From a phage, in sequence record PZ445551.1: 64,000 bases of DNA; one strand, given 5' to 3'. Shown here one piece after another: positions 50,613 through 63,082 of the stretch. The translations under genes were made by a program, and so were the position numbers. Each line of letters begins with the position of its first letter. Within the stretch, counting starts at the first letter, position 1. The notes under the pieces are model-generated. The model was not told the DNA's origin and made no database searches. It was given only the letters and a program-made list of their open reading frames with translations.

Positions 50613-51443
50613 TCACTCCTTGTTTAAAAGTATAGTTAAAGTTCTTACAATACCGCTATCAACACTTCGCGGATTTAAAGTAGGATCTGTTTTTAAATAA
50701 GATGTTGCTGGTCTGACTGCTTTTGAATTATAGGTTGAAGCAGATACAGGATTAACTGTAACAGATAAATCTATAACAAGAAATATCTTTCGTGCAAAAT
50801 CATACCAAGAAATATAATCTGCACCTGCATAGTGTACAATTTTACTATTTACACCATCTTTTACAAGTTTAAAAATTGTTTCTGCAAGATCAGGTGCATA
50901 AGTAGGACATGATAAATGATCACATACTACATTAAATTCTTTTTGACCACCGTTGTAGCGTTCCAACATAGTTTTCAAAAAGTTATGTCCAAATTCACTA
51001 TAAACAGAAGCTGTTCGGATAATAAGTGCTGTAGGACAAACTGTTTGTACTAAAGTTTCACCTAATTGTTTACTATAACCGTAGGTGTTCAAGGGGTTTG
51101 TTTTACTATCTTCTGTACCAGCAACATGCCCATCAAAAACATAGTCTGTTGAAATATGTACAAACTGTATCAGTAAATCATTACATGCTTTGGCAATGTT
51201 TGTTGCACCGTATGCATTAACATTTATACAGGTGTTAACATCTTCTTCAGCTTTATCTACTGCCGTGTAAGCCGCACAATTCACAACAACATCAGGCACA
51301 TGCTGTACAAGACTATTCATAACATCTTTAAAGTTGGTAATGTCTACATCACTTGCTTCAATCAAAATAACATCTTCGGGCGCAACTTTTGCCAAAGACT
51401 GTCCTAATTGACCTTTTGAACCAAAGACTAAAAATTTTGTCAA
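50613..51443 (-). CDS. rmlD: dTDP-4-dehydrorhamnose reductase
   Basis: GSKGQLG, AAYTAVDKAE, STDYVFDG, YGYSKQLGE; probable TTG start with SD AAGGAG. Confidence 0.88.
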   Translation of the reverse strand: MTKFLVFGSKGQLGQSLAKVAPEDVILIEASDVDITNFKDVMNSLVQHVPDVVVNCAAYTAVDKAEEDVNTCINVNAYGATNIAKACNDLLIQFVHISTDYVFDGHVAGTEDSKTNPLNTYGYSKQLGETLVQTVCPTALIIRTASVYSEFGHNFLKTMLERYNGGQKEFNVVCDHLSCPTYAPDLAETIFKLVKDGVNSKIVHYAGADYISWYDFARKIFLVIDLSVTVNPVSASTYNSKAVRPATSYLKTDPTLNPRSVDSGIVRTLTILLNKE

Positions 51444-51994
51444 AATATGATCTCCTTTAGTGTTTTGGCTTCCTGATCTTTTTGTGACAAGATAGGTTTA
51501 AAATTAATATCATTAAAGATTAAATCAAAACCCCAATCTATATTGATATCTGGATCATTCCACGCAAGACTACACTCTGAAGTCGGATCGTAATATTCTG
51601 TACATTTGTATTCAAAATCAGCAATATCACTAATCACAACAAAGCCATGAGCGAAACCAGGAGGAATCCAAAATTGTGTTTTATTCTTTTCAGATAAGAG
51701 AACACCTACCCATTCTCCAAATGTTGGACTACCAACCCTAATATCTACAGCAACATCATAAACTTCACCACGAACACAGCGTACTAACTTCCCTTGTGGG
51801 TTTTTCTTTTGAAAATGAAGCCCACGTAGAACTCCTCGGATAGAACGTGAATGGTTATCTTGGACAAAGTTTTGTTTACCTATGTATTGATCATATAAAG
51901 CCTGATTAAAACTTTCTAAGAAAAAGCCACGTTCATCTCCATAAACGTCAGGTTGAATGATCAACAAGTCTTCGATTTTTGTTGCTTGAATCAT
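51440..51994 (-). CDS. rmlC: dTDP-4-dehydrorhamnose 3,5-epimerase
   Basis: GDERGFFLESF, RGLHFQ, KLVRCVRGEVYDVAVDIR, IPPGFAHGF. Confidence 0.9.
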   Translation of the reverse strand: MIQATKIEDLLIIQPDVYGDERGFFLESFNQALYDQYIGKQNFVQDNHSRSIRGVLRGLHFQKKNPQGKLVRCVRGEVYDVAVDIRVGSPTFGEWVGVLLSEKNKTQFWIPPGFAHGFVVISDIADFEYKCTEYYDPTSECSLAWNDPDINIDWGFDLIFNDINFKPILSQKDQEAKTLKEIIF

Positions 51995-52006
51995 TTAATT
52001 CCCCTT

Positions 52007-52876
52007 TTATTTTAATTTAAGTAAATACTTACCGTAGTCTGTTTTACTTAAAACCTCTCCAGAACTTTTTACAGAGTCTAAAGTAATCCATTCATTTTTA
52101 AAAGCAATCTCTTCCAGGCATGCAACCTTCATACCTTGTTGCTTCTCTATTGCATGAACAAATTGAGATGCTTCCATAAGACTTTCATGTGTTCCTGTAT
52201 CCAGCCAAGTGAAACCTCTTCCTAGCTTACAGACACGTAAAGCCTTTTCTTTCCAGTACATCTCATTTATATCTGTGATCTCTAACTCCCCTCTAGCAGA
52301 AGGCTTAACGCTTTTAGCTTTCTGTATAACAGAATTATCGTAAAAGTACAAGCCTGTAATTGCATAGTTGCTTTTTGGTGCTTTTGGTTTTTCTTCAATA
52401 CTTACCACTGTACCTTCAGAATCAAACTCAACAACACCAAATCTTTCAGGATCATTTACGTGATACCCAAAAATATTAGCTCCACCATTCTTTTCAATAT
52501 GTTCTTTAGCAGAATCTAAAATGCTACCAAAACTCTGACCAAAGAATAAATTATCACCTAGCACAAGTGCTACAGAATCTTCACCAATAAAGTTCTCACC
52601 AATAATAAACGCTTCTGCTAAACCTTTTGGGCTATCCTGTACTGCATACTGTAGGGAAATACCAAAAGAAGAACCGTCACCTAGAAGATTTACAAAATTA
52701 ATTTGATCTTCTGGTGTTGTAATTATTAGTATTTCCCTAATTCCAGAAAGCATTAGGACAGAGAGTGGATAATAAATCATAGGTTTATCGTAAATTGGTA
52801 ATAGTTGTTTACTAACCCCTTTAGTAACTGGGTAAAGTCTTGTTCCACTACCACCTGCTAAGATAATACCTTTCAT
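52007..52876 (-). CDS. rmlA: glucose-1-phosphate thymidylyltransferase
   Basis: [36 protein letters not shown]. Confidence 0.92.
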
Positions 52877-52884
52877 ACTCCTCC

Positions 52885-53874
52885 TTAAACTTTATTTTCC
52901 CACCACTCTTTGTTATCTACATACCAATCAATGGTTGAATAAAGTTTTTCTTCAAATGTGCCTTTAGCTTTCCACCCTAATTCCTTTTCAATCTTATAAG
53001 GATTCACTTCATATCTTAGATCATGCCCAGGCCTATCTGTAACCATCTCAATGAGGCTACAAGCATCTGTTTCAGATGGATATACCGCATCCATATAATC
53101 ACAAATCATATAGATTACATCAATATTAGTTCTAGGGTTTCTGCTCCCAATATTATATGTTTCTCCAGATTTGCCTTTAGTTACTACTAGGTGTAATGCT
53201 TCTGCGTGATCGTCAACGTATAGCCAGTCTCTTACTTGAAGACCATTACCATAAACAGGGATTGGTTTATTCATTAAGATATTTGTTATCGTCTTAGGTA
53301 TTAGTTTTTCTGGATGATGATATGCTCCAAAATTATTTGAACAATTTGTTATAACTGTCGGAATACCATAAGTACGATGCCACGCTCTTACCAAATGATC
53401 GCTTGCAGCTTTAGATGCAGCATATGGACTACTTGGTTTATAAGGATTCTGTTCTGTAAACGGATAATCCCCTTCTTCCAGATCACCATACACTTCATCT
53501 GTTGAAATATGATGGAACATTTTAAGATTTGATTTATCTCCCATTAAACGAACAGCTTCTAGAAGATTAAATGTCCCAACAATATTTGAATTTATAAAAA
53601 CACTCGGTGATGCTATTGAATTATCTACGTGACTCTCTGCTGCAAGATGCATTATATAATCTGGATTAACATCTGCCACAATCTTAGCAGTTAACTGCGC
53701 ATTTGTCAAGTCAACACGACAAAACTTTACATTAGGTGTTTCTGATAAATTCCTAGGGTCTGAAGCGTAACCCCATTTATCTATAACGTAAATATCATTC
53801 TTAGTATTTTTAGCTAGGAAACGAACTACCGCACTTCCAATAAAGCCTAAACCACCTGTTACTAAGTATTTCAT
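52885..53874 (-). CDS. rmlB: dTDP-glucose 4,6-dehydratase
   Basis: [37 protein letters not shown]. Confidence 0.92.
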
Positions 53875-54747: not shown

Positions 54748-54934
54748 ACTTGGCTACACCATTAACTATAATGTGACCGCAAGACATAACTCCTAGCCAA
54801 TGATCACCATTCTTTTTTAAACGTTTACCGTAAACATCACAGAAACCATTCTGTAATTCGGAAGCCTCATAAGAGGCTCCCTTTTCGAAAACGTCTTTGA
54901 AGTCAGAAATTAATCCAACACAAAGTAGTTTCAT
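54716..54934 (-). CDS. hypothetical protein (72 aa)
   Basis: ORF in same-strand block. Confidence 0.5.
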   Translation of the reverse strand: MKLLCVGLISDFKDVFEKGASYEASELQNGFCDVYGKRLKKNGDHWLGVMSCGHIIVNGVAKFEIIKGEKDD

Positions 54935-56019
54935 TAAAAGTCTAACTCCTCGTCATCACTTACATCTTTATTTGCTGAATTCAGTTTGTAAGCTGTAATT
55001 TGGATCTCCTGTGCTGCTGCTTGAATTTGATCTGGATTTAACCAAACATCCATCCAAGGCAGTGGACTTTTCTTCGGTGCACGGAATTTGTGTTTCATTT
55101 TCAGTCTGCGATAGATAGGCGCAGCATTGAAGTAAACCCAAAGTTTGAACAACTCTGCGTTACCACCAACGATAATCCTTCCTTCACTAAACAGATAGTC
55201 ACACCAATCTTCCTCTTGTCCAACTACCGTGTCAAGAATTTCTGTCAGAACGTCGATATTATCTTCGTATACTTTTCTCCAGACAGGATCTTTCAGCAGT
55301 GCATCAATAATAGCATAATCCATTTTAACGTGCAATAGTTCATCCAACATAATTTTTTGAATGAGTTTAGCTGCACCTACAAACAGTTGCTGCTCTGCTA
55401 AGGCAAATGTTGCAGCAAAAGATGATATGAATTGAATGCCTTCCAGACCGATAAGTGCAATCATTCCTTTCAGAATCAGTAGACGAAGGTTATCATCCTT
55501 CTCAATCAGACCTAGAGCATATTTATGCCCTGCCTCTGCCAGATCACTCATTATCTCTTCAACTATACCCATCCTCTGGAAGATTCTTTCGTTCTCCATA
55601 ATCTGATCGATAACTTCATTTGGATTAGGGATACACTGACGAATAATTTCAGAATATGTCAAAGCGTGTAAAACTTCCATTTCTGATTGCTTCATCATCA
55701 TTGCACATGCTTCGTTGTTGCTTAAAAATGGTGCAAACAAAGTGATGATTGATTTAGCAAGTGAATCATTTTCCCACTGGAAAGATAGGTTTTTGATCAT
55801 AACATCATAGTTGCTTTTAGAACAAGCTACGAAATCTTTTCGTGTCTGATCTAAGTTTACTTCGTTTTCATCCCAGTCTTGCTGTTTTTGTAGTTTGTAC
55901 AGACGATGCATTTCTGGGTATGTTACATTAATAGAATCAAAAATACCTAACTGTTCTCCCAAAAACACAGGGTAGAAACCTTCTTTGTAAGTGTCGTTGT
56001 ATAAGTTAATTGCTGCCAT
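54934..56019 (-). CDS. nrdB: ribonucleotide reductase class Ia beta subunit
   Basis: Length and C-terminal PWMDVWL...DDEELDF align with NrdB; adjacent to nrdA. Confidence 0.85.
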   Translation of the reverse strand: MAAINLYNDTYKEGFYPVFLGEQLGIFDSINVTYPEMHRLYKLQKQQDWDENEVNLDQTRKDFVACSKSNYDVMIKNLSFQWENDSLAKSIITLFAPFLSNNEACAMMMKQSEMEVLHALTYSEIIRQCIPNPNEVIDQIMENERIFQRMGIVEEIMSDLAEAGHKYALGLIEKDDNLRLLILKGMIALIGLEGIQFISSFAATFALAEQQLFVGAAKLIQKIMLDELLHVKMDYAIIDALLKDPVWRKVYEDNIDVLTEILDTVVGQEEDWCDYLFSEGRIIVGGNAELFKLWVYFNAAPIYRRLKMKHKFRAPKKSPLPWMDVWLNPDQIQAAAQEIQITAYKLNSANKDVSDDEELDF

Positions 56020-56027
56020 TTAAAAAT

Positions 56028-56048
56028 TCTCCTCAATAAAAAGGGGCC
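56028..56048 (-). terminator. hairpin + U-tract module upstream of nrdB SD
   Basis: GGGGTTTCGGCCCC then TTTTTTATT, SD GAGGAG on minus strand. Confidence 0.5.
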
Positions 56049-56063
56049 GAAACCCCTTGATGT

Positions 56064-56720
56064 TTAGCCTTGGAACACTGTTTTTGTTTCTGCCAAGTGA
56101 TAGTATAAATCTGCCTTGTTTATAAGAGTGTTGTATACCTCTTGACAAAAATGTTCTTCCTCTTTGTAACGATTCGCTGTTTCCCTGATCGACTTGGCTT
56201 TATCTTTTAACCAAGCGAAGTGTGCCTCTTCCTCTGTAGCGAAATAGCCTAAATGCTTGCTTTTGCTTCCAGAAGTTTTGGCATAAATCTTGCCATCTTT
56301 CCTAATATGCGCTCCGAGTAAGTATTTCCTTTTATGTCTCTTGGCATAACTTAAAAGTGTATTGATATAGGGAGGAACAAACCTACAATATTCAGGACAA
56401 TAGACAGTATTTCCCTCAAGAACAAGATCTTTGTCTAAAACAAAACCTTCGACATTGTGTTCTTGATACCAATTATCAAAATTTGAAAAAGTAAACCAAG
56501 CATCACAGACGGTAACATCTTTATACCCTGGTCTAATATCTTCCATCTTATATGCACGATGAAACATGCCTTTCCAAGCTGCATAGGAAGGGTCTATGAA
56601 TGTGTTAACCCTTTTCCCGTTGACAACGCCACCTTCCCACAATCTACGTTCAACATCCACAATCAAGGGGATTTCTCCCCTCTCTGTGAGAACAGTAACT
56701 TTACGTTTACCCTTCTTCAC
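56064..56720 (-). CDS. putative homing endonuclease (AP2-like DNA-binding segment) between nrdA and nrdB
   Basis: HLGYFATEEEAHFAW AP2-like segment; position matches intergenic homing-endonuclease insertions in T-even nrd loci. Confidence 0.45.
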   Translation of the reverse strand: MKKGKRKVTVLTERGEIPLIVDVERRLWEGGVVNGKRVNTFIDPSYAAWKGMFHRAYKMEDIRPGYKDVTVCDAWFTFSNFDNWYQEHNVEGFVLDKDLVLEGNTVYCPEYCRFVPPYINTLLSYAKRHKRKYLLGAHIRKDGKIYAKTSGSKSKHLGYFATEEEAHFAWLKDKAKSIRETANRYKEEEHFCQEVYNTLINKADLYYHLAETKTVFQG

Positions 56721-56728
56721 CTGTCCTC

Positions 56729-58993
56729 CTACATTTTACAGGCGCTACACCCCTCGTCTTCAGAATCTTCTTGAGCGAGTGAGGATGCCGATTTTGTTCT
56801 GCTATTTAGATAGTACAAAGATTTACCACCAAGTTTTGCAAACTGAAGAATATATTGCATTTCTGATTTAATGGATAAACGACCACCTTCCATCTTAGAG
56901 TAGTCAATCCACTTATCACATGATGCACCTTGATCTAAGAATTTAGTCAACAGGCCATATGCTTCAGCCATATCTTTATCTGGCGTATCCCAAGCCGATT
57001 GGTAAATATCTTTTAGTTTATCGTAATCTGGCACAATAAACAGAACATTACCTTTTTGGCTTTGTTTATAAACTATAGTATCACGTACAGGATACACAGA
57101 GTTAGTCGTATTACTTACAAGACTACTGGACTCATTTGGAGCAATAGCTGCTAATACGCTATTTCGGATACCACCTTGTGCAATGATATCTTGTCGTAAA
57201 CCTTCCCAATCCATTTTAAGTTTAAAATTGCCAATATCGTCTACAGCTTTAGCGTAGGTGTCAATAGGCAACCATCCTTCAGGCCATTTGGTTTTATGCA
57301 TCCATTCTGCATTACCTTTCTCTTTTGCCAAACGAAGAGAAGCTCTTGCTAACCAATAATAATGTCTTTCTGCTAATTCGTGAATTAGTTTTTTGCCGTA
57401 AGGATCTGAATAAGTAACAAAATTACTTGCCAGATAATGTGCAAGGTTTGTAATACCTACACCGATAGACCTACGTGCTTTAGCAGTGATTTCGTTATGT
57501 TTAAACGGATACTGCATTGTTTCAATAACATTATCAATAGTCAGAACGGTATAATATGCAACATCTTCATATTCTTCTGGTGTAACACGACCAGCTACAA
57601 TAGAAGACAGGAAGCATAATGCCAATTCTTGATCTTCTGTATTCTCACCTGTGAAAAGATCAGTCATATTGTGAAATGCTTTCGTAGGTAAGAAAATTTC
57701 TTGGCACAAGTTTGACTGGTAAATAACATCCTTAAACGGAGTATGTTTATTAGCATTATCCGCAAAGAACATATAAATACGTCCTGTCTCTGCTCTTTGT
57801 GTAATAATTTCTGCCAGAAGATCTCGTGCTTTTACAAACTTCTTCTTAATTCGTTTGCGACTAACTTTTTCATATACTTCTTCAAACTCTTCCTCGCTTT
57901 TATAAAGCGCCTCATAGAGTTCTGGTGCTTCGTCATAACTGACTAGCATCCAATCTTTACCTTTTGCTGCACGGCGCAGGAAAGCATTGTTTACTACAAT
58001 AGAGTAATCAAGTTTATCTACTCGTTTTTCACTAACAGTAGTTGGGTTTTTCAAACGTACCAGATCTTCAAAATCAGGTTCTAGTATTGTAAACGTTACT
58101 GTTGCACTTCCACCACGGCTTGCTTGTTTTGATGCTCCAACACTTGTTTCCATCCATTTCAGATATGGTAAAAGACCACCGTGAACGATACGGTTGTTCT
58201 TAACACCTTGTCCTGTAGCACGGGTTTGGAGGTTAACACCAATACCTGCATTATTCAATGTATATTCATGAGCAAGATAGTTAGCAATTGCTAAAGATTC
58301 TGCTGTATCATCTGCTCTAAACAGGCAACAAGAAGCACTACCTTTAATCTTAGTACGCAAAGTTGTTAAATAAGGTGATGGTAAGTTAATCTTAAGATCA
58401 CTTACGTAGGTATATAGACGTTTAATGTCTTCTACTCTGCGATCTTTTGGTTGAATTTCCATTACCTTCATTGCTACACCAATGAATAAAAACTGTGGTG
58501 ATTCAAAAACAACATCATTGATCGCATCTTTCACAAGATACTTATCAACCATCTGGCGCAGTACGGAATAACCATAAGTTAGGTTTTTATCGTGATTGAC
58601 AATTTTACCAATCTCAATAATTTCTTCTTCTGTATAATCCATTTTTCCCCAATAGCCTTTACTTACAGCCATATTGTAGAAATCCAGGAGGGAGGGGATA
58701 TTATGATATCCCCCATGAGCCTGTTTATAAATCATACCAAGAAGTAACCGACCTGCCATATCACTATATGCCTGATCTTTCTTATCAATACATGCTGCTA
58801 TCATAGCTTTATGTAAATCACGAGTAGGCACACCGTCGTAACAACGTTTAACAGCTTCAAGTTCAATTTCAGACCAATTTAATTTACCAGCAGCAAACTC
58901 TGACCATTTACGAAGTTTTTCTGGATTAAATTCTTCTTTCTTGCCGTTTGTTTTTGTTACATAACGGATAGATTTGCTTAGATACTGAGTCAC
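56729..58993 (-). CDS. nrdA: ribonucleotide reductase class Ia alpha subunit
   Basis: 754 aa; SNLCQEI, TGRIYMFF, C-terminal GCSACKM Cys pair; probable GTG start. Confidence 0.93.
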   Translation of the reverse strand: MTQYLSKSIRYVTKTNGKKEEFNPEKLRKWSEFAAGKLNWSEIELEAVKRCYDGVPTRDLHKAMIAACIDKKDQAYSDMAGRLLLGMIYKQAHGGYHNIPSLLDFYNMAVSKGYWGKMDYTEEEIIEIGKIVNHDKNLTYGYSVLRQMVDKYLVKDAINDVVFESPQFLFIGVAMKVMEIQPKDRRVEDIKRLYTYVSDLKINLPSPYLTTLRTKIKGSASCCLFRADDTAESLAIANYLAHEYTLNNAGIGVNLQTRATGQGVKNNRIVHGGLLPYLKWMETSVGASKQASRGGSATVTFTILEPDFEDLVRLKNPTTVSEKRVDKLDYSIVVNNAFLRRAAKGKDWMLVSYDEAPELYEALYKSEEEFEEVYEKVSRKRIKKKFVKARDLLAEIITQRAETGRIYMFFADNANKHTPFKDVIYQSNLCQEIFLPTKAFHNMTDLFTGENTEDQELALCFLSSIVAGRVTPEEYEDVAYYTVLTIDNVIETMQYPFKHNEITAKARRSIGVGITNLAHYLASNFVTYSDPYGKKLIHELAERHYYWLARASLRLAKEKGNAEWMHKTKWPEGWLPIDTYAKAVDDIGNFKLKMDWEGLRQDIIAQGGIRNSVLAAIAPNESSSLVSNTTNSVYPVRDTIVYKQSQKGNVLFIVPDYDKLKDIYQSAWDTPDKDMAEAYGLLTKFLDQGASCDKWIDYSKMEGGRLSIKSEMQYILQFAKLGGKSLYYLNSRTKSASSLAQEDSEDEGCSACKM

Positions 58994-59004
58994 TTCCTCT
59001 CCTA

Positions 59005-59265
59005 TTAATTATGCATATTTAGAACATCTACATCATAACCGCCACGCATCTCGTTATATAAGCCATTTGCGTATAGAAAACCTTCAAAATGATCTATACC
59101 TTCAAAACCTTTTGCCTTTGCTTTGCGGTCTGCTTCTTGTCTTTTTGGAGATAATCTTTTAGATGTATCAAGGATAACTGTTACATTGCAACCTAATGTT
59201 TCATCAAAATAGACTTCAATTTCACAGCCTTCATATTTATTACTTTCTGTCATTTGGCCTCTCAA
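59005..59265 (-). CDS. hypothetical protein (86 aa)
   Basis: ORF in same-strand block. Confidence 0.5.
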   Translation of the reverse strand: MRGQMTESNKYEGCEIEVYFDETLGCNVTVILDTSKRLSPKRQEADRKAKAKGFEGIDHFEGFLYANGLYNEMRGGYDVDVLNMHN

Positions 59266-59676
59266 TTAGAATTCAGAATCATCATCTCGTGATGGATCAT
59301 GTTCATTTCCGAAGTCTTCCATTTTGATATGAGAGCTACCCCAACCTGTAAAATCTTCTTCTCCAAAGTGCAAAATATCCACACCTTGATAGATTCGTTT
59401 ATATTTATAGTCTTGACGAACTGGGAAAGTATACAATGTAGTATTTGCAAACACCACACGTCGATTGTTGTTACTACGAATATTAACACCACGTTCTACT
59501 GTATAATGTCCATCGGTAGACATACCAAGCATTACTAATGCTGCTCGCAATGTAGTGTTATGATACTCGTGAGGAATTTTTCCTCCGTGCTTTTTAGCCA
59601 TTTCTTTCCAGATCGGTGTAGCCTTAATGGTAGACATACTTACGGTCGCCCAAATGGTTGTATTAATTAGTGACAT
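59266..59676 (-). CDS. hypothetical protein (136 aa)
   Basis: ORF in same-strand block. Confidence 0.55.
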   Translation of the reverse strand: MSLINTTIWATVSMSTIKATPIWKEMAKKHGGKIPHEYHNTTLRAALVMLGMSTDGHYTVERGVNIRSNNNRRVVFANTTLYTFPVRQDYKYKRIYQGVDILHFGEEDFTGWGSSHIKMEDFGNEHDPSRDDDSEF

Positions 59677-59773
59677 AAATTCTCCTTCTCTCTTTTAAGG
59701 AGAGCATAGCTCTCCTAACGTTAGCCTATACTACACGAATCTCAATTAAAAGTCAACTATAATTTTAAGTTGA

Positions 59774-60745
59774 TCACCATTTTGTATGGTTAGTCAAAAG
59801 TTGACGATGTTGAATCCAACCACAGAAGTTTCCACTCCACAAACGATGTTTACGATCCATATGTGTAATACCTTCTTCCCAAGAGGAAGGGAACGGAGGA
59901 ATATTAATACCACCTTTCTGTTGTTTTAATCCTGACAAATCCATTTCTTTCATTGGCGTTGCCTGGTGTTCAAACGGAGATGCATGTACCTTTTGTCCAG
60001 ACAGCAAACGAGAATAGATATCCAATGCTTTATCTTTAGTATCATTCAACTTACGATAACTTACCTGAGCGCAACAAGAAGCTGAAATAGCTTTTGCTTC
60101 ATCTTCTGTCAACATTTTCTCGTTGGAGAAGGTTTCACCCAAGAAATAACGGATCATACCAGTTTCTGGATCTCGATCACGATTAACGTAAGGTGTATGC
60201 CACTCCCCTGGGAAAAGAAGATATGGTTCAGAAGATTCATACAGTTTTTTAATTTCTTTAGCAAGAGCCTCAATAGTAGGATCTGCATCAGCATCTACGC
60301 GCAACCACAAGAAGTTTTCTAATTCTGTAGTGGTTACTACAGTCTTCATACGCTGGAATGGTTCTAGTAGTCGGTTTGCAACCTGTTTATGATAACCAGC
60401 AAGGGCAAACTCTTCTGCAAAACGTGCAGCACTTAGTGCAGCCAAGTCCCACCATTCTTTTGCAGTGTAACCTGCATCAATCAGGGCATCGTGATCTGTG
60501 CCTTTATCTTGCATACCTGGTTGGTTAGCACCAAAACGATAAGGACGTGCTGGAGATTGCCGTACCATTTCAATCAGGGTTTTAACAGGGATAGCTCGAC
60601 TTGATGCGGCATTACGAGAAAACAAACGATGCGTCATCAACTCAGAGTGAATGATTCGAGGATATTCAAGTTCAAAGGTAACAATATCCTTACCTTCAGA
60701 TGTTTGAGAGTGTGCAATAATTTTTGCTGAAATAGAATCTGTCAT
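59774..60745 (-). CDS. thyX: ThyX-like (flavin-dependent thymidylate synthase family) protein, divergent
   Basis: IVTFELEYPRIIHSELMTHRLFSRNAASSRA aligns to ThyX core but reads THR where canonical motif is RHR; 323 aa, longer than typical. Confidence 0.6.
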   Translation of the reverse strand: MTDSISAKIIAHSQTSEGKDIVTFELEYPRIIHSELMTHRLFSRNAASSRAIPVKTLIEMVRQSPARPYRFGANQPGMQDKGTDHDALIDAGYTAKEWWDLAALSAARFAEEFALAGYHKQVANRLLEPFQRMKTVVTTTELENFLWLRVDADADPTIEALAKEIKKLYESSEPYLLFPGEWHTPYVNRDRDPETGMIRYFLGETFSNEKMLTEDEAKAISASCCAQVSYRKLNDTKDKALDIYSRLLSGQKVHASPFEHQATPMKEMDLSGLKQQKGGINIPPFPSSWEEGITHMDRKHRLWSGNFCGWIQHRQLLTNHTKW

Positions 60746-60754
60746 TGTTTCTCC

Positions 60755-61345
60755 TTAAGGTAGTAAAATACTTTCAATTTCTTCCCACTGATTATCTAAA
60801 CCAGTGATAATTACATTAGGAAGTTTCTTTAACTCTTCCAAATATGGATCTTCGTAAATAGTGTTGAAATATATTTTCAACGTTTCATCTGGAAACAGGA
60901 CAAGATTTTCAGCCCTATCATCAATAGTTACGTCGCAAGGCAATAAGTATTTTTCTTTTGTTGCGAAAAAACCATTACCAGATGTTCTACTAAAATCCAC
61001 TTTATCTAAAGACCGTGTTACGTGTCTATATTTAGAACTAAGGTGTCCACCCTTAGTGTGGCTTGCTATAGATATATTAGCTCCATTTGCAATTATACGA
61101 TGAACAACATCTGTACTATTAGGTACTACTCCCATAGTATCATATAGATGTTGGTTATCCCAAAAAGAGTAAGGATCAACACCAAATTGCTTTTTAAAAT
61201 CAGGGAAATATTTCGTAATATCATAATGCACAGTTTTATGTGTATTATCAAATTTGATATTAGATCTACTTACCGCATTTAACCAATTTAACCACTCTAT
61301 ATCCGCAGGAGCTATTACTAAATCCCAATCACATACTAGACGCAT
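60755..61345 (-). CDS. putative 5'(3')-deoxyribonucleotidase-like HAD-family protein
   Basis: Start refined to MRLVCDWDLVIAP with SD AGGAG; C-terminal LPCDVTIDDRAENL resembles NT5C-type motif. Confidence 0.45.
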   Translation of the reverse strand: MRLVCDWDLVIAPADIEWLNWLNAVSRSNIKFDNTHKTVHYDITKYFPDFKKQFGVDPYSFWDNQHLYDTMGVVPNSTDVVHRIIANGANISIASHTKGGHLSSKYRHVTRSLDKVDFSRTSGNGFFATKEKYLLPCDVTIDDRAENLVLFPDETLKIYFNTIYEDPYLEELKKLPNVIITGLDNQWEEIESILLP

Positions 61346-61892
61346 TATTTCTCCTGTTATAACATTTTCTACACATTGTTTCGTAAATGTCTTCTCCCCC
61401 AATAACAATCTGTTCTTTAGAGTCGATAAGTCTAGCATTGAAAATAGCTTTTCTTCCACATTTACAAATGCTTTTCAATTCTGTAATTGAATCTGCTATG
61501 GCTAATAACCGTTCAGAACCTTCAAACAATTCTGTAGCAAAATCTGTTTTAAGTCCATAACAGAATACAGGAATATCGTAATTATCTACCACATCTCCAA
61601 GAATGTCAACCATATCTTTAGTTAGGAATTGTGATTCGTCCACAAATACTGCATCTACTGGATTTTCTTTAAGCTGTGTATAAATTTCCAGCATATCTTC
61701 TTTTGTTTTAACTGGTTTTGCTTCCTCTTTAATACCTATCCTAGAAGCAATAGCACTACCAGATCTGGTATCTAAAGCTGAAGTTAAAAGAAGAACTTTC
61801 ATATTTCTTTCTTTATAGTTCCAAGCTGTTTGTAGAAGATGTGTGCTTTTACCACTGTTCATTGGACTATATCGGAAATAAAGTTTAGCCAT
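61329..61892 (-). CDS. tdk: thymidine kinase
   Basis: MAKLYFRYSPMNSGKST, FVDESQFL, CYGLKTDF, CKCGRKA...CRKCY. Confidence 0.93.
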   Translation of the reverse strand: MAKLYFRYSPMNSGKSTHLLQTAWNYKERNMKVLLLTSALDTRSGSAIASRIGIKEEAKPVKTKEDMLEIYTQLKENPVDAVFVDESQFLTKDMVDILGDVVDNYDIPVFCYGLKTDFATELFEGSERLLAIADSITELKSICKCGRKAIFNARLIDSKEQIVIGGEDIYETMCRKCYNRRNNASSM

Positions 61893-61937
61893 ATTTTCTC
61901 CTCTAACGCTCCCATTTGTGGGAGCGATAATACTTTA

Positions 61938-62513
61938 TTATTTCTCTTCGTCAAGAAGAATTTTTACTATCTGTTTTCTTCGCTTATTTACTGTACTTTC
62001 TGGTGAAATTCCGCGCTTCGTTAGCCAATTTTTATCCTTTTTAGACTGGCACAAAGCTATCGCTTCCTTCTCCGCTTTTGCTTCCCTGAATGTCATATCG
62101 TGCTTGTCAGCATAAGCCAGGATAGCGTTACACTGCTTACAAACTACACGCAGGTCGTCTTCTGTTACATACAATAGGCGTAAAACAAAACTTGGGATAT
62201 CTTCATAACAGGTTAATGTACCTGCTGCATTAATATGGTCTACTTGAAAGTCTTTCATACCTCCTGTGTGTCCACACAATTCACATTTACAATTCCAAAC
62301 CTGTTTCGGTTTGCCTGTTTTCTTATCTAAAACTATATTGCCATCTTTATCCAATCTATCGGCTTTAAATCGTACAGATTGGATCTTTTTTATCTTATTC
62401 GGGTGTCTCACCCATGCTTTCCTTAAGCAACCCCTTAAATATGTATAAAAGGCTGCTTGAGTTTTCCAAGGTGTTCCATCTCCCCAAATAACTTTAGGTT
62501 CTTTATTTTCCAA
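61938..62513 (-). CDS. HNH endonuclease
   Basis: CELCGHTGGMKDFQVDHINAAG ... VVCKQCNAI HNH motif. Confidence 0.65.
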   Translation of the reverse strand: MENKEPKVIWGDGTPWKTQAAFYTYLRGCLRKAWVRHPNKIKKIQSVRFKADRLDKDGNIVLDKKTGKPKQVWNCKCELCGHTGGMKDFQVDHINAAGTLTCYEDIPSFVLRLLYVTEDDLRVVCKQCNAILAYADKHDMTFREAKAEKEAIALCQSKKDKNWLTKRGISPESTVNKRRKQIVKILLDEEK

Positions 62514-62697
62514 TAGTGCTCACCTTTTTAGCTACATAATCTCCAGGTGGAATGTTATACTTAAAGAAAAGCATACGGTCTAAACCAGCCTTACACATGT
62601 TTTCTGGGATTGTGATTGTATATAAGAGTTTATCTCCACGTTTATTGTATATTTTATATACTTCACCCTCTCCGTATTGTTTACCGTGAGAAGCCAT
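62503..62697 (-). CDS. hypothetical protein (64 aa)
   Basis: ORF in same-strand block. Confidence 0.5.
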   Translation of the reverse strand: MASHGKQYGEGEVYKIYNKRGDKLLYTITIPENMCKAGLDRMLFFKYNIPPGDYVAKKVSTIGK

Positions 62698-63082
62698 CTA
62701 CACTCTCCTTCAATTGTTCAATAGCATCTGCTGCTTCAATGTACTTACCTTTATACATTGCTTTTAAAGCCTTACGAACAAGATCATCGTCTGTGTATAA
62801 ATCAATTAGCTGGTTAGCTAACTCAATTTTTACAGGGTTTTTTAGATTAGGGTAGGCTTCATACAACATATTGTAATACTTATCACTTAATTCTTTTTCA
62901 ATATGAATAACGTGAATCGCTTTGTTTAGGTTGATCACACGATCACCTTTGTTTCGACAAGCATACTTAGCTAACTTAGTGAAACAAGGAGTTGCACCAA
63001 TTAGATATGCAAGTTCCAAAGGTTGCATACGCATACGTTTGTAGTGATCACCATCAATTTGAATATCCAGTGCTGTAGTCAT
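62681..63082 (-). CDS. hypothetical protein (133 aa)
   Basis: Preceded by hairpin + T-run + SD GGAGGA on minus strand. Confidence 0.55.
   Translation of the reverse strand: MTTALDIQIDGDHYKRMRMQPLELAYLIGATPCFTKLAKYACRNKGDRVINLNKAIHVIHIEKELSDKYYNMLYEAYPNLKNPVKIELANQLIDLYTDDDLVRKALKAMYKGKYIEAADAIEQLKESVDGFSR

Follow-up and report, generated by a model that had tools for sequence, protein, structure and literature searches.

The stretch of DNA that we analyzed, a 64,000-nucleotide phage window (record PZ445551.1), matches Escherichia phage VivaForever (record PP925843.1), a phi92-like phage with a 146-kb genome, at 100% identity. It carries a string of genes in the order tdk, NT5C-like, thyX-like, nrdA, nrdB, all on the minus strand. 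The thymidine kinase gene tdk (61329-61892, 187 aa) matched the Pfam TK family with an E of 1e-54 and scored 240 bits with NCBIfam NF003300, against a cut-off of 195. The thyX-like gene (59774-60745) encodes 323 aa from an ATG at 60745. Reading the sequence directly, we found a Shine-Dalgarno AAGGAG (60751-60756, minus strand) 5 nt before this ATG; it overlaps the stop codon that ends the NT5C-like ORF upstream. Directly downstream and on the same strand is a block (54934-58993) in which, according to the ORF list and the annotation of PP925843.1, the class Ia ribonucleotide reductase (RNR) genes nrdA (56729-58993) and nrdB (54934-56019) flank the gene of a free-standing HNH endonuclease (56064-56720). 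The tdk, NT5C-like and thyX-like genes are probably co-transcribed; a scan of 58900-62700 returned promoter and terminator counts no higher than those of shuffled sequence and no minus-strand terminator.

A complete dTDP-L-rhamnose pathway, rmlBACD (50613-53874, minus strand), which consumes dTTP, lies 5.9 kb from the thyX-like gene, in agreement with an initial annotation of the locus that had placed an rml operon a few kb away. Compared with their NCBIfam cut-offs, rmlB (52885-53874) scored 444 bits against 365 (TIGR01181), rmlA (52007-52876) 474 against 361 (TIGR01207), rmlC (51440-51994) 260 against 156 (TIGR01221) and rmlD (50613-51443) 253.5 against 224 (TIGR01214). Four glycosyltransferase genes are located elsewhere in the genome.

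The initial annotation had also set a HAD-type nucleotidase-like protein and a thymidine kinase beside the thyX-like gene, and this is what the locus contains. The ORF between tdk and the thyX-like gene encodes a probable 5'(3')-deoxyribonucleotidase. Its longest frame spans 60755-61459 and opens with a GTG at 61459; in the public record the start is at 61438. Because the homologue in phage rV5 begins at the equivalent residue, translation probably starts at the Met at 61345, which would yield a protein of 196 aa (60755-61345, minus strand). The ORF scored 22.8-23.2 bits with Pfam NT5C (E 7e-5 at 23.2 bits), just below the gathering score of 24.8, and the rV5 homologue matched the same family with an E of 7.9e-6. 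The two proteins are 33% identical (E 9e-27) and share D6, D8, S95, K132, D142 and D143; the HAD motifs of the window ORF read DWDLV, SIASHT, K and IDDR. It falls in PHROG 420, labeled 'unknown function', and searches of PDB sequences with the protein alone and with a two-sequence profile gave nothing significant. In rV5, a single small ORF separates the homologue from the thyX-like gene a short way downstream.

The thyX-like protein scored 37 bits with Pfam Thy1 (PF02511; gathering score 24.8), with residues 22-170 aligned to profile positions 59-186 of 191. With the NCBIfam thyX equivalog TIGR02170 it scored 35.8 bits in its native order and did not reach the cut-off of 87.9. A phmmer search of PDB sequences with the protein alone returned no match at E values up to 10, unlike a family profile of its clade, which matched the ThyX of T. 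maritima (Tm; TM0449, PDB 1KQ4 and 1O26) among the PDB sequences. From the Pfam and TIGR02170 alignments, hhalign comparison with TM0449 and residue conservation, we delimited a ThyX-fold core at residues 20-175 (60221-60688, minus strand). This core is collinear with Tm ThyX residues ~60-200 and contains R125, N144 and R149. The initial annotation had proposed alignment to ThyX and structure prediction as checks; the core aligned to ThyX, and the protein, modeled as a monomer with AF2, is predicted to adopt the ThyX three-dimensional fold. Canonical ThyX works as a homotetramer with bound FAD, in which each active site draws on three subunits, and its conversion of dUMP to dTMP depends on CH2-THF and NAD(P)H. 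Its length was also as described, about 100 residues beyond the typical, since TM0449 has 220 aa and other solved ThyX chains have 216-258 aa.

Alignment to T. maritima ThyX with hhalign placed the signature motif at T38-H39-R40-x7-S48-S49-R50 (60596-60634, minus strand). Here, T38-H39-R40-L-F-S-R-N-A-A-S48-S-R50 aligns with Tm R78-H79-R80-x7-S88-G89-R90, so that the window protein has T-H-R-x7-S in place of the canonical R-H-R-x7-S, as first read. Conservation was assessed in 106 clade relatives, sampled at ≤50% identity and 37-75% identical to the window protein. The T38 position was T in 101 of them and R in only 2, R40 (Tm R80) was R in 84, and S48 (Tm S88) was S in 105. H39 and R50 (Tm H79 and R90) were invariant in all 106, as were H254, S229, R125, N144 and R149 (Tm H53, S30, R147, N169 and R174). 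E259 (Tm E58) was kept in 99 of the 106, and the counterpart of Tm T55 was S in 104. Relative to the T. maritima enzyme, the window protein and its clade differ at R78 (T), Q75 (E), E86 (A/S), Y91 (A), R165 (T) and H178 (D). Three basic residues that were invariant among the 106 relatives, K120, R314 and H183, are new to the clade and lie outside the canonical core.

We take Tm R90 and R147 to be phosphate contacts in that enzyme, and the roles assigned to Tm R165 and to individual FAD contacts are taken from the T. maritima structure. The residue roles used here (R174 as uracil-activating, R147 as the second phosphate arginine, and N169, H53, S30 and E58 as flavin residues) follow PMC3498832 and the T. 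maritima structures. Tm R78 and R80 are described as direct hydrogen-bond partners of dUMP that are conserved across ThyX, and R90 also contacts dUMP (PMC3498832). The initial annotation had inferred altered active-site residues. That holds for R78, which is replaced by T, but the counterparts of the uracil, phosphate and flavin contacts are invariant or nearly so in the 106 relatives.

Because arginines that hold phosphates in canonical ThyX are lost, the protein might carry out the same flavin-dependent C5-methylation with a shifted substrate or cofactor: UMP, as with PolB, a di- or triphosphate, FMN instead of FAD, or another reductant. Residues at the R78, R80 and R165 positions (T, variable and T) and the new invariant K120, R314 and H183 outside the canonical core point in this direction. 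However, the counterparts of R90 and R147 are invariant, R90 being a dUMP contact (PMC3498832), and the gene context is one of deoxynucleotide synthesis (RNR, dCTP deaminase, tdk). The gene is also the sole thymidylate-synthase-like gene in an A+T-rich genome, and we regard a shift of this kind as improbable.

Several relatives of the protein carry inteins, which are placed exactly at conserved motifs: between H33 and S34, after R40, between S48 and S49, after R149, and between H254 and A255. Intein insertion at active sites is typical of important DNA-metabolism enzymes. The altered signature motif and the score under the equivalog cut-off would both suit a non-catalytic protein derived from ThyX, such as a nucleotide-binding regulator or a scaffold for a dNTP-synthesizing complex. 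We find this scarcely credible, given that essentially all catalytic and ligand-contact positions besides R78 and R80 are invariant in more than 100 sequences (37-75% identical), that the inteins target those conserved motifs, and that the family is kept in more than 1000 phage genomes, with no other thymidylate synthase annotated in the one genome checked.

The order of elements in the chain is changed as well. A module at residues 213-262 (59960-60109, minus strand), made up of two helices and the loop H254-A-S-P-F-E259-H260, shows homology, by sequence and profile alignment, to residues 20-60 of Tm ThyX (S30, H53, T55, E58 and H59). In canonical ThyX this module comes before the motif, and in T. 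maritima the 20-60 segment precedes the core, whereas in the window protein it follows the core. The family profile matched Tm ThyX in three stretches whose order was permuted. When residues 176-262 were moved ahead of residues 20-175, the Pfam Thy1 score rose from 37 to 47 bits in a single stretch covering positions 13-186 of 191, and the TIGR02170 score rose from 35.8 to 46.8 bits, still not reaching the equivalog cut-off of 87.9. With the real relocated segment, hhalign gave a score of 60.8 (E 4.9e-9), compared with 39.7 for the core alone, 39.7-40.1 for other segments, 42.4 for the native order and 38.6-40.2 for 20 column-shuffled versions. The canonical N-terminal strands were placed by hhalign on neither residues 6-14 nor residues 186-212 (zero confidence), and this strand placement favored neither a circular permutation nor the relocation of a single segment.

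Two further elements are specific to the clade: an insert within the core at roughly residues 64-95, and a C-terminal extension, recognized by its conservation, at residues 263-323 (59777-59959, minus strand). In this tail of ~60 residues, R314 is invariant and G292, N306 and Q312 are near-invariant. No similarity was detected for the tail; hhalign of the segment alone against TM0449 found nothing, and no Pfam family covers it. No search recognized an added catalytic domain in the extra ~100 residues that separate the 323-aa window protein from the 220-aa T. maritima enzyme, and at the level of sequence they are explained by the rearranged topology, the insert and the conserved tail. Our literature search for ThyX with circular permutation returned only permuted genomes or unrelated proteins, and we did not find the cause of the extra length described.

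The family is large. At E ≤ 1e-10, 4154 cluster representatives (50% identity) matched it, and the clade extends over many hosts, with 1035 phage records that include N4 (gp30), ICP1 (gp193), rV5, PAK_P1 and phiCbK-like phages; most of them have no rml genes close by. A single-protein scan of 185,579 reference genomes for cellular carriers matched only 4 MAG contigs. Naturally split genes, such as that of FPSV-D7 with halves of 239 aa and 129 aa, and intein-bearing relatives exist within the clade. We found no assayed or solved clade member in the literature or in the PDB sequence search. The thyX-like gene adjoins class Ia RNR genes in the window phage, rV5 and PAK_P1 and lies 2 kb from a dCTP deaminase gene in N4, and none of the inspected clade neighborhoods (among N4, ICP1, PAK_P1, phiCbK-like phages and others) contained rml genes. 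The initial annotation had pointed out T-H-R and the extra length. Neither is peculiar to this gene; both are the norm across a very large clade, and they therefore give no indication of exotic DNA chemistry in the window phage.

We also compared the window protein with other ThyX-type enzymes. PolB of Streptomyces cacaoi (PDB 4P5A), a UMP/dUMP C5-methylase of polyoxin biosynthesis, has the canonical order of elements and serves an antibiotic pathway, whereas the window protein, only 17-19% identical to it, is encoded among deoxynucleotide-synthesis genes. Canonical viral ThyX proteins, namely PBCV-1 A674R (216 aa; PDB 2CFA and 4FZB) and the actinophage 'ThyX-like' proteins, are distinct from the window protein, which belongs to a separate, rearranged T-H-R clade. 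In PBCV-1 ThyX, R78, R80, S88 and R90 are described as conserved dUMP ligands (PMC3498832).

The initial annotation had taken the altered motif, next to sugar-nucleotide genes, as a sign of a different pyrimidine chemistry. The product would then be a modified pyrimidine nucleotide such as 5-hydroxymethyl-dUMP, arising from capture of the exocyclic methylene intermediate by water, and it would enter phage DNA and be glycosylated by way of the rml products and glycosyltransferases. Acid-quenched ThyX reactions can give 5-hydroxymethyl-dUMP, so the chemistry is conceivable. The first motif arginine is replaced, as are the residues at the E86 and Y91 positions; the gene has that of an NT5C-like nucleotidase as its neighbor, whose homologue likewise lies near the thyX-like gene in rV5; and the genome combines rmlBACD in the window with its four glycosyltransferase genes. 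Yet T-H-R is clade-wide (101 of 106 relatives), and the identical motif and architecture are found in 1035 phage records, with inspected neighborhoods free of rml genes. RmlA, a glucose-1-phosphate thymidylyltransferase equivalog, makes dTDP-glucose from ordinary dTTP, and a common need for dTTP is therefore the simpler account of why the rml genes are linked to it. The probable co-transcription of thymidine kinase in the same operon fits dTMP being wanted, not excluded.

The phi92-like phages are restriction-sensitive, reportedly 'exceptionally susceptible' to restriction-modification systems 'despite a putative dTDP glycosylation machinery' (PMC8594841). Known hypermodification enzymes include the 5-hmdU DNA kinase and the aGPT-Pplase-type transferase (PMC8989533). 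Hypermodified phages of the SPO1, ViI, M6 and T4 type carry such DNA kinases and transferases; neither these nor a ThyA-family dUMP hydroxymethylase are listed in the annotation of the 146-kb genome of the window phage. The known hydroxymethylases, moreover, are of ThyA rather than ThyX type (PMC8989533). These ThyA-family dUMP/dCMP hydroxymethylases (SPO1, ViI, M6, T4 gp42) likewise belong to the nucleotide-pool metabolism of phages and act on a pyrimidine monophosphate at C5, but they have an unrelated fold, that of the classical thymidylate synthase family (PMC8989533 for the 5-hmdU pathways); the Pfam family for classical thymidylate synthase had no match in the six ORFs scanned. We consider it very unlikely that a modified pyrimidine is made. 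As the main reading of the nucleotidase, a dTMP-excluding enzyme like those of phages with U- or hmU-DNA was discarded, since tdk is probably co-transcribed, RmlA depends on dTTP and phi92-like phages are sensitive to restriction. What stands of the initial interpretation is the altered motif and the string of nucleotide-metabolism genes; the new pyrimidine chemistry and the glycosylation precursor are not supported.

In our judgment, the ORF quite likely encodes a functional ThyX-type flavin-dependent thymidylate synthase (EC 2.1.1.148) from a rearranged phage clade. We infer its catalytic activity and dUMP as its substrate, whereas direct support exists for the fold and the changed order of elements, for residue conservation, and for the distribution and gene contexts of the clade. 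Counting against a working ThyX are the score far below the equivalog cut-off, the Thr at Tm R78, the variable R80 position and the replacements at Tm E86, Y91 and R165. The enzyme would take dUMP, and the methylene of CH2-tetrahydrofolate would pass by way of the reduced flavin to C5 of uracil and then be reduced, with release of dTMP. Basic residues conserved in the clade, R30, R/K44, K120, R231 and R314, may stand in for the phosphate contacts of Tm R78 and R80. The annotation of the 146-kb genome lists no further thymidylate synthase. Beside the phage ribonucleotide reductases and thymidine kinase, the enzyme would supply dTTP for replication of a 63% A+T genome, and this dTTP would also feed the phage's own dTDP-rhamnose pathway.

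There is an outside chance that the T-H-R clade is a mechanistically distinct ThyX subtype with a differently composed active site. Such a site, which we likewise put forward with considerable doubt, would be built by the relocated flavin module, the loss of the R78, R80 and R165 phosphate contacts, the conserved tail and K120, H183 and R314. If this were true, flavin or reductant use, nucleotide specificity or even the product could differ from those of canonical ThyX.

For the window phage, these results are mostly deflationary, and the best reading of the gene is an ordinary enzyme for dTMP supply. For the family, they mean that among the commonest phage thymidylate synthases are enzymes in which a flavin-contacting module is relocated in the chain and one of the arginines considered to be conserved dUMP ligands is lacking. 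ThyX serves both as a drug target and as a model for flavin-mediated methylene transfer, and a natural variant that rebuilds the active site differently would reveal which contacts are dispensable. The clade may be of use to ThyX enzymologists and to annotators, as a subtype that scores below the curated equivalog threshold, and its split genes and intein-bearing members are ready material on how such a rearrangement could arise.

The window's ThyX-like protein (323 aa; 59774-60745, minus strand) matched Pfam Thy1 above threshold over residues 22-170 only, and scored 35.8 bits against the NCBIfam thyX equivalog, far under the cut-off of 87.9. We mapped its residues onto Thermotoga maritima ThyX (TM0449, "Tm" below; the reference sequence is identical to PDB 1KQ4 chain A) and found that T38-H39-R40-x7-S48-S49-R50 aligns with R78-H79-R80-x7-S88-G89-R90. 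This confirmed the initial annotation of a ThyX-like core reading T-H-R in place of the canonical R-H-R-x7-S; the 323-aa length, the HAD-type nucleotidase-like and thymidine kinase neighbors and the nearby rml genes were likewise found as it had described them. When the protein was searched against PDB sequences, no member of its clade matched at E up to 10, and a family-profile search of the PDB returned canonical ThyX-fold chains as its sole matches.

Comparison of the family profile with Tm ThyX revealed three matching stretches in permuted order: query residues 23-52, 128-173 and 213-255 corresponded to Tm chain residues 73-102, 166-211 and 32-72, respectively. The last stretch (ISASCCAQVSY versus LSAVRAARVSF in Tm; HASPFEH versus HETPFEH) is a helix pair and loop with the counterparts of Tm S30, H53, T55, E58 and H59. 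In canonical ThyX these elements directly precede the strand and helix leading into the RHR motif, whereas in the window protein they follow the core. When we moved residues 176-262 ahead of residues 20-175 in silico, the Pfam score rose from 37 to 47 bits in a single stretch (profile positions 13-186 of 191), and the TIGR02170 score from 35.8 to 46.8 bits (positions 14-205 of 211). In hhalign comparisons of the family profile with TM0449, the core alone (residues 20-175) scored 39.7 and the native order 42.4, while placing segment 213-262 ahead of the core gave 60.8 (E 4.9e-9, Tm 20-196). Other segments in that position scored 39.7-40.1, 20 column-shuffled versions of the segment scored 38.6-40.2, and segment 213-262 by itself aligned with Tm 20-60 at E 1e-4. 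From sequence and secondary structure, we infer that the relocated module is equivalent in three dimensions to its Tm counterpart. Circular permutation is only one of two possible descriptions of the rearrangement, because either residues 6-14 or residues 198-212 may represent the canonical N-terminal strands. The extra length is accounted for by this topology together with an insert at roughly residues 64-95 (G77 and M78 invariant) and a tail at 263-323 (R314 invariant), neither of which had detectable likeness to anything.

Among 1.84 billion cluster representatives searched exhaustively with HMMER, 4968 relatives reached E <= 0.001 and 4154 reached E <= 1e-10; more than 7400 were recovered by a word-indexed search. 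By tblastn the protein was present in 1035 of 50,697 phage records, with at least 80% covered in 1008. Carriers include coliphage N4 (gp30), Vibrio phage ICP1 (gp193), relatives of rV5 and phAPEC8, Pseudomonas PAK_P1- and KPP10-like phages and phiCbK-like Caulobacter phages. Clade proteins are almost all about 300-335 aa and are usually annotated "thymidylate synthase"; N4 gp30 (EF056009.1; 43.5% identity, 98% query coverage), a member of the rearranged clade, has no name in its reference record. In an alignment of 106 relatives with 37-75% identity to the window protein, the first motif position was T in 101, K in 2, R in 2 and A in 1. Such counts mark T-H-R and the added length as the norm of a huge family, rather than a private change in one rml-carrying phage.

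The same 106 relatives were used to assess the active site. Invariant residues were S229 (Tm S30), H254 (H53), H39 (H79), R50 (R90), R125 (R147), N144 (N169) and R149 (R174), and nearly as constant were H260 (H59) and S48 (S88), each in 105, S256 (T55) in 104 and E259 (E58) in 99. R78, R80, S88 and R90 are direct hydrogen-bond partners of dUMP and are conserved in ThyX (PMC3498832). Two of these four are therefore strictly kept in the clade and two are not, the second motif Arg being R in just 84 relatives. The window protein also differs from Tm by R78 to T, Q75 to E, E86 to A/S, Y91 to A (invariant in the clade), R165 to T and H178 to D. Conserved basic residues specific to the clade (R30, R/K44, K120, H183, R231 and R314) could substitute in phosphate binding. 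We regard a shifted substrate or cofactor as unlikely.

Large insertions were present in relatives of 520-680 aa (P0133, P0138, P0141, P0142, P0162, P0202, P0207, P0229, P0234, P0240, P0247, P0248, P0251, P0257 and P0261). They fell at five distinct sites, every one at a conserved motif: between H33 and S34, after R40/L42, between S48 and S49, after R149-x-H151, and, in the relocated His-loop, between H254 and A255. Four of the six scanned had Pfam intein/homing-endonuclease domains (HNH in P0133 and P0138, LAGLIDADG in P0162 and P0229), the clade inteins being either Intein_splicing plus HNH or LAGLIDADG. Intein placement at conserved motifs is a further indication of functional importance, and a non-catalytic role for the protein seems barely credible.

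The thyX-like ORF, with AAGGAG 5 nt before its ATG, is closely packed on the minus strand with an NT5C/HAD-like ORF (60755-61459) and tdk (61329-61892). The latter is unambiguously thymidine kinase (Pfam E 1e-54; 240 bits with NF003300, cut-off 195). The NT5C/HAD-like ORF scored 23 bits with Pfam NT5C, slightly below the threshold of 24.8, and has four HAD motifs shared with its rV5 homologue (33% identity). Because that homologue, like the PHROG match, starts at the Met equivalent to window 61345, the product is probably 196 aa, not 227 or 234 aa. The start in public records (61438, overlapping tdk by 110 nt versus 17 nt from Met 61345) is probably miscalled. The gene order is HNH endonuclease, tdk, NT5C-like, thyX-like, two small ORFs, nrdA, HNH endonuclease and nrdB, then several small ORFs, rmlBACD (50613-53874, all four above equivalog cut-offs) and a thioredoxin-like gene. 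The two free-standing HNH homing-endonuclease genes (56064-56720 between nrdA and nrdB, and 61938-62513 directly upstream of tdk, both minus strand) flank or break up this nucleotide-metabolism string.

In rV5 and PAK_P1, class Ia RNR lies directly downstream of the thyX-like gene. In N4 the gene is 2 kb downstream of dCTP deaminase (the pair at L004:3468-3974 and L004:4998-5939 of our N4 locus), and in ICP1 it stands by itself amid small ORFs, with nrdA 3 kb further downstream. What keeps recurring beside the gene is deoxynucleotide synthesis rather than sugar metabolism. The initial annotation had taken an altered active site beside sugar-nucleotide genes to suggest a different pyrimidine chemistry; with T-H-R the clade norm and such partners, that proposal is unsupported. 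Since RmlA is an equivalog of glucose-1-phosphate thymidylyltransferase, the phage sugar pathway uses up ordinary dTTP, and this demand offers a simpler explanation for why rml genes accompany dTTP-supply genes. Phi92-like phages are reported to be exceptionally vulnerable to restriction-modification systems (PMC8594841). Known thymidine hypermodification begins with a ThyA-family dUMP hydroxymethylase and requires DNA kinases and transferases (PMC8989533). The annotation of the phage genome lists no such enzyme, nor a second thymidylate synthase anywhere in its 146 kb. Bulky T modification of the phage DNA is therefore unlikely, though plain thymidine only is not proven. A modified-nucleotide synthase is a very improbable reading. 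Outside the window, four glycosyltransferase genes in a row (PP925843.1 129644-132820; L008:45-3221) adjoin primase/helicase and DNA polymerase I genes; with rmlBACD they form putative dTDP glycosylation machinery, for which virion protein, host glycan and DNA are candidate targets.

The window (G+C 35-42%) corresponds to roughly 48.2-112.2 kb of Escherichia phage VivaForever (PP925843.1) on the opposite strand. Positions 59000-62600 are 100% identical to that phage and 98.5-99% identical to about 55 further phi92-like (Justusliebigvirus) phages. Four unannotated 146-kb GenBank records titled "Campylobacter phage", with C. jejuni as listed host (MG065639, MG065645, MG065656 and MG065689), were 98.6% identical to this phi92-like E. 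coli phage across the 3.6-kb query, which points to mislabelling or phage contamination of those preparations.

We also observed the gene in pieces. In Flavobacterium phage FPSV-D7 (MW421580.1), a 239-aa ORF (L009:1498-2217, plus strand) ending near window residue 187 is followed by a 274-aa GIY-YIG homing-endonuclease ORF (L009:2231-3055, plus strand), and a 129-aa ORF (L010:2939-3328, minus strand) carries the relocated helix pair, an HSSPFEH loop and the conserved tail. The gene is interrupted in the linker between core and module (residues ~176-212), some 25 residues before the module. In BFVD, Escherichia phage ECP26 has "thymidylate synthase" pieces of 245 and 97 aa.

A full-text literature search found no description of the rearranged ThyX architecture. 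The best explanation, which we hold with good though not full confidence, is that the protein works as a flavin-dependent dTMP synthase and belongs to a very common phage subtype; something unforeseen takes up the small remainder. The subtype is mildly new in its rearranged architecture and in having lost a dUMP ligand regarded as universal.
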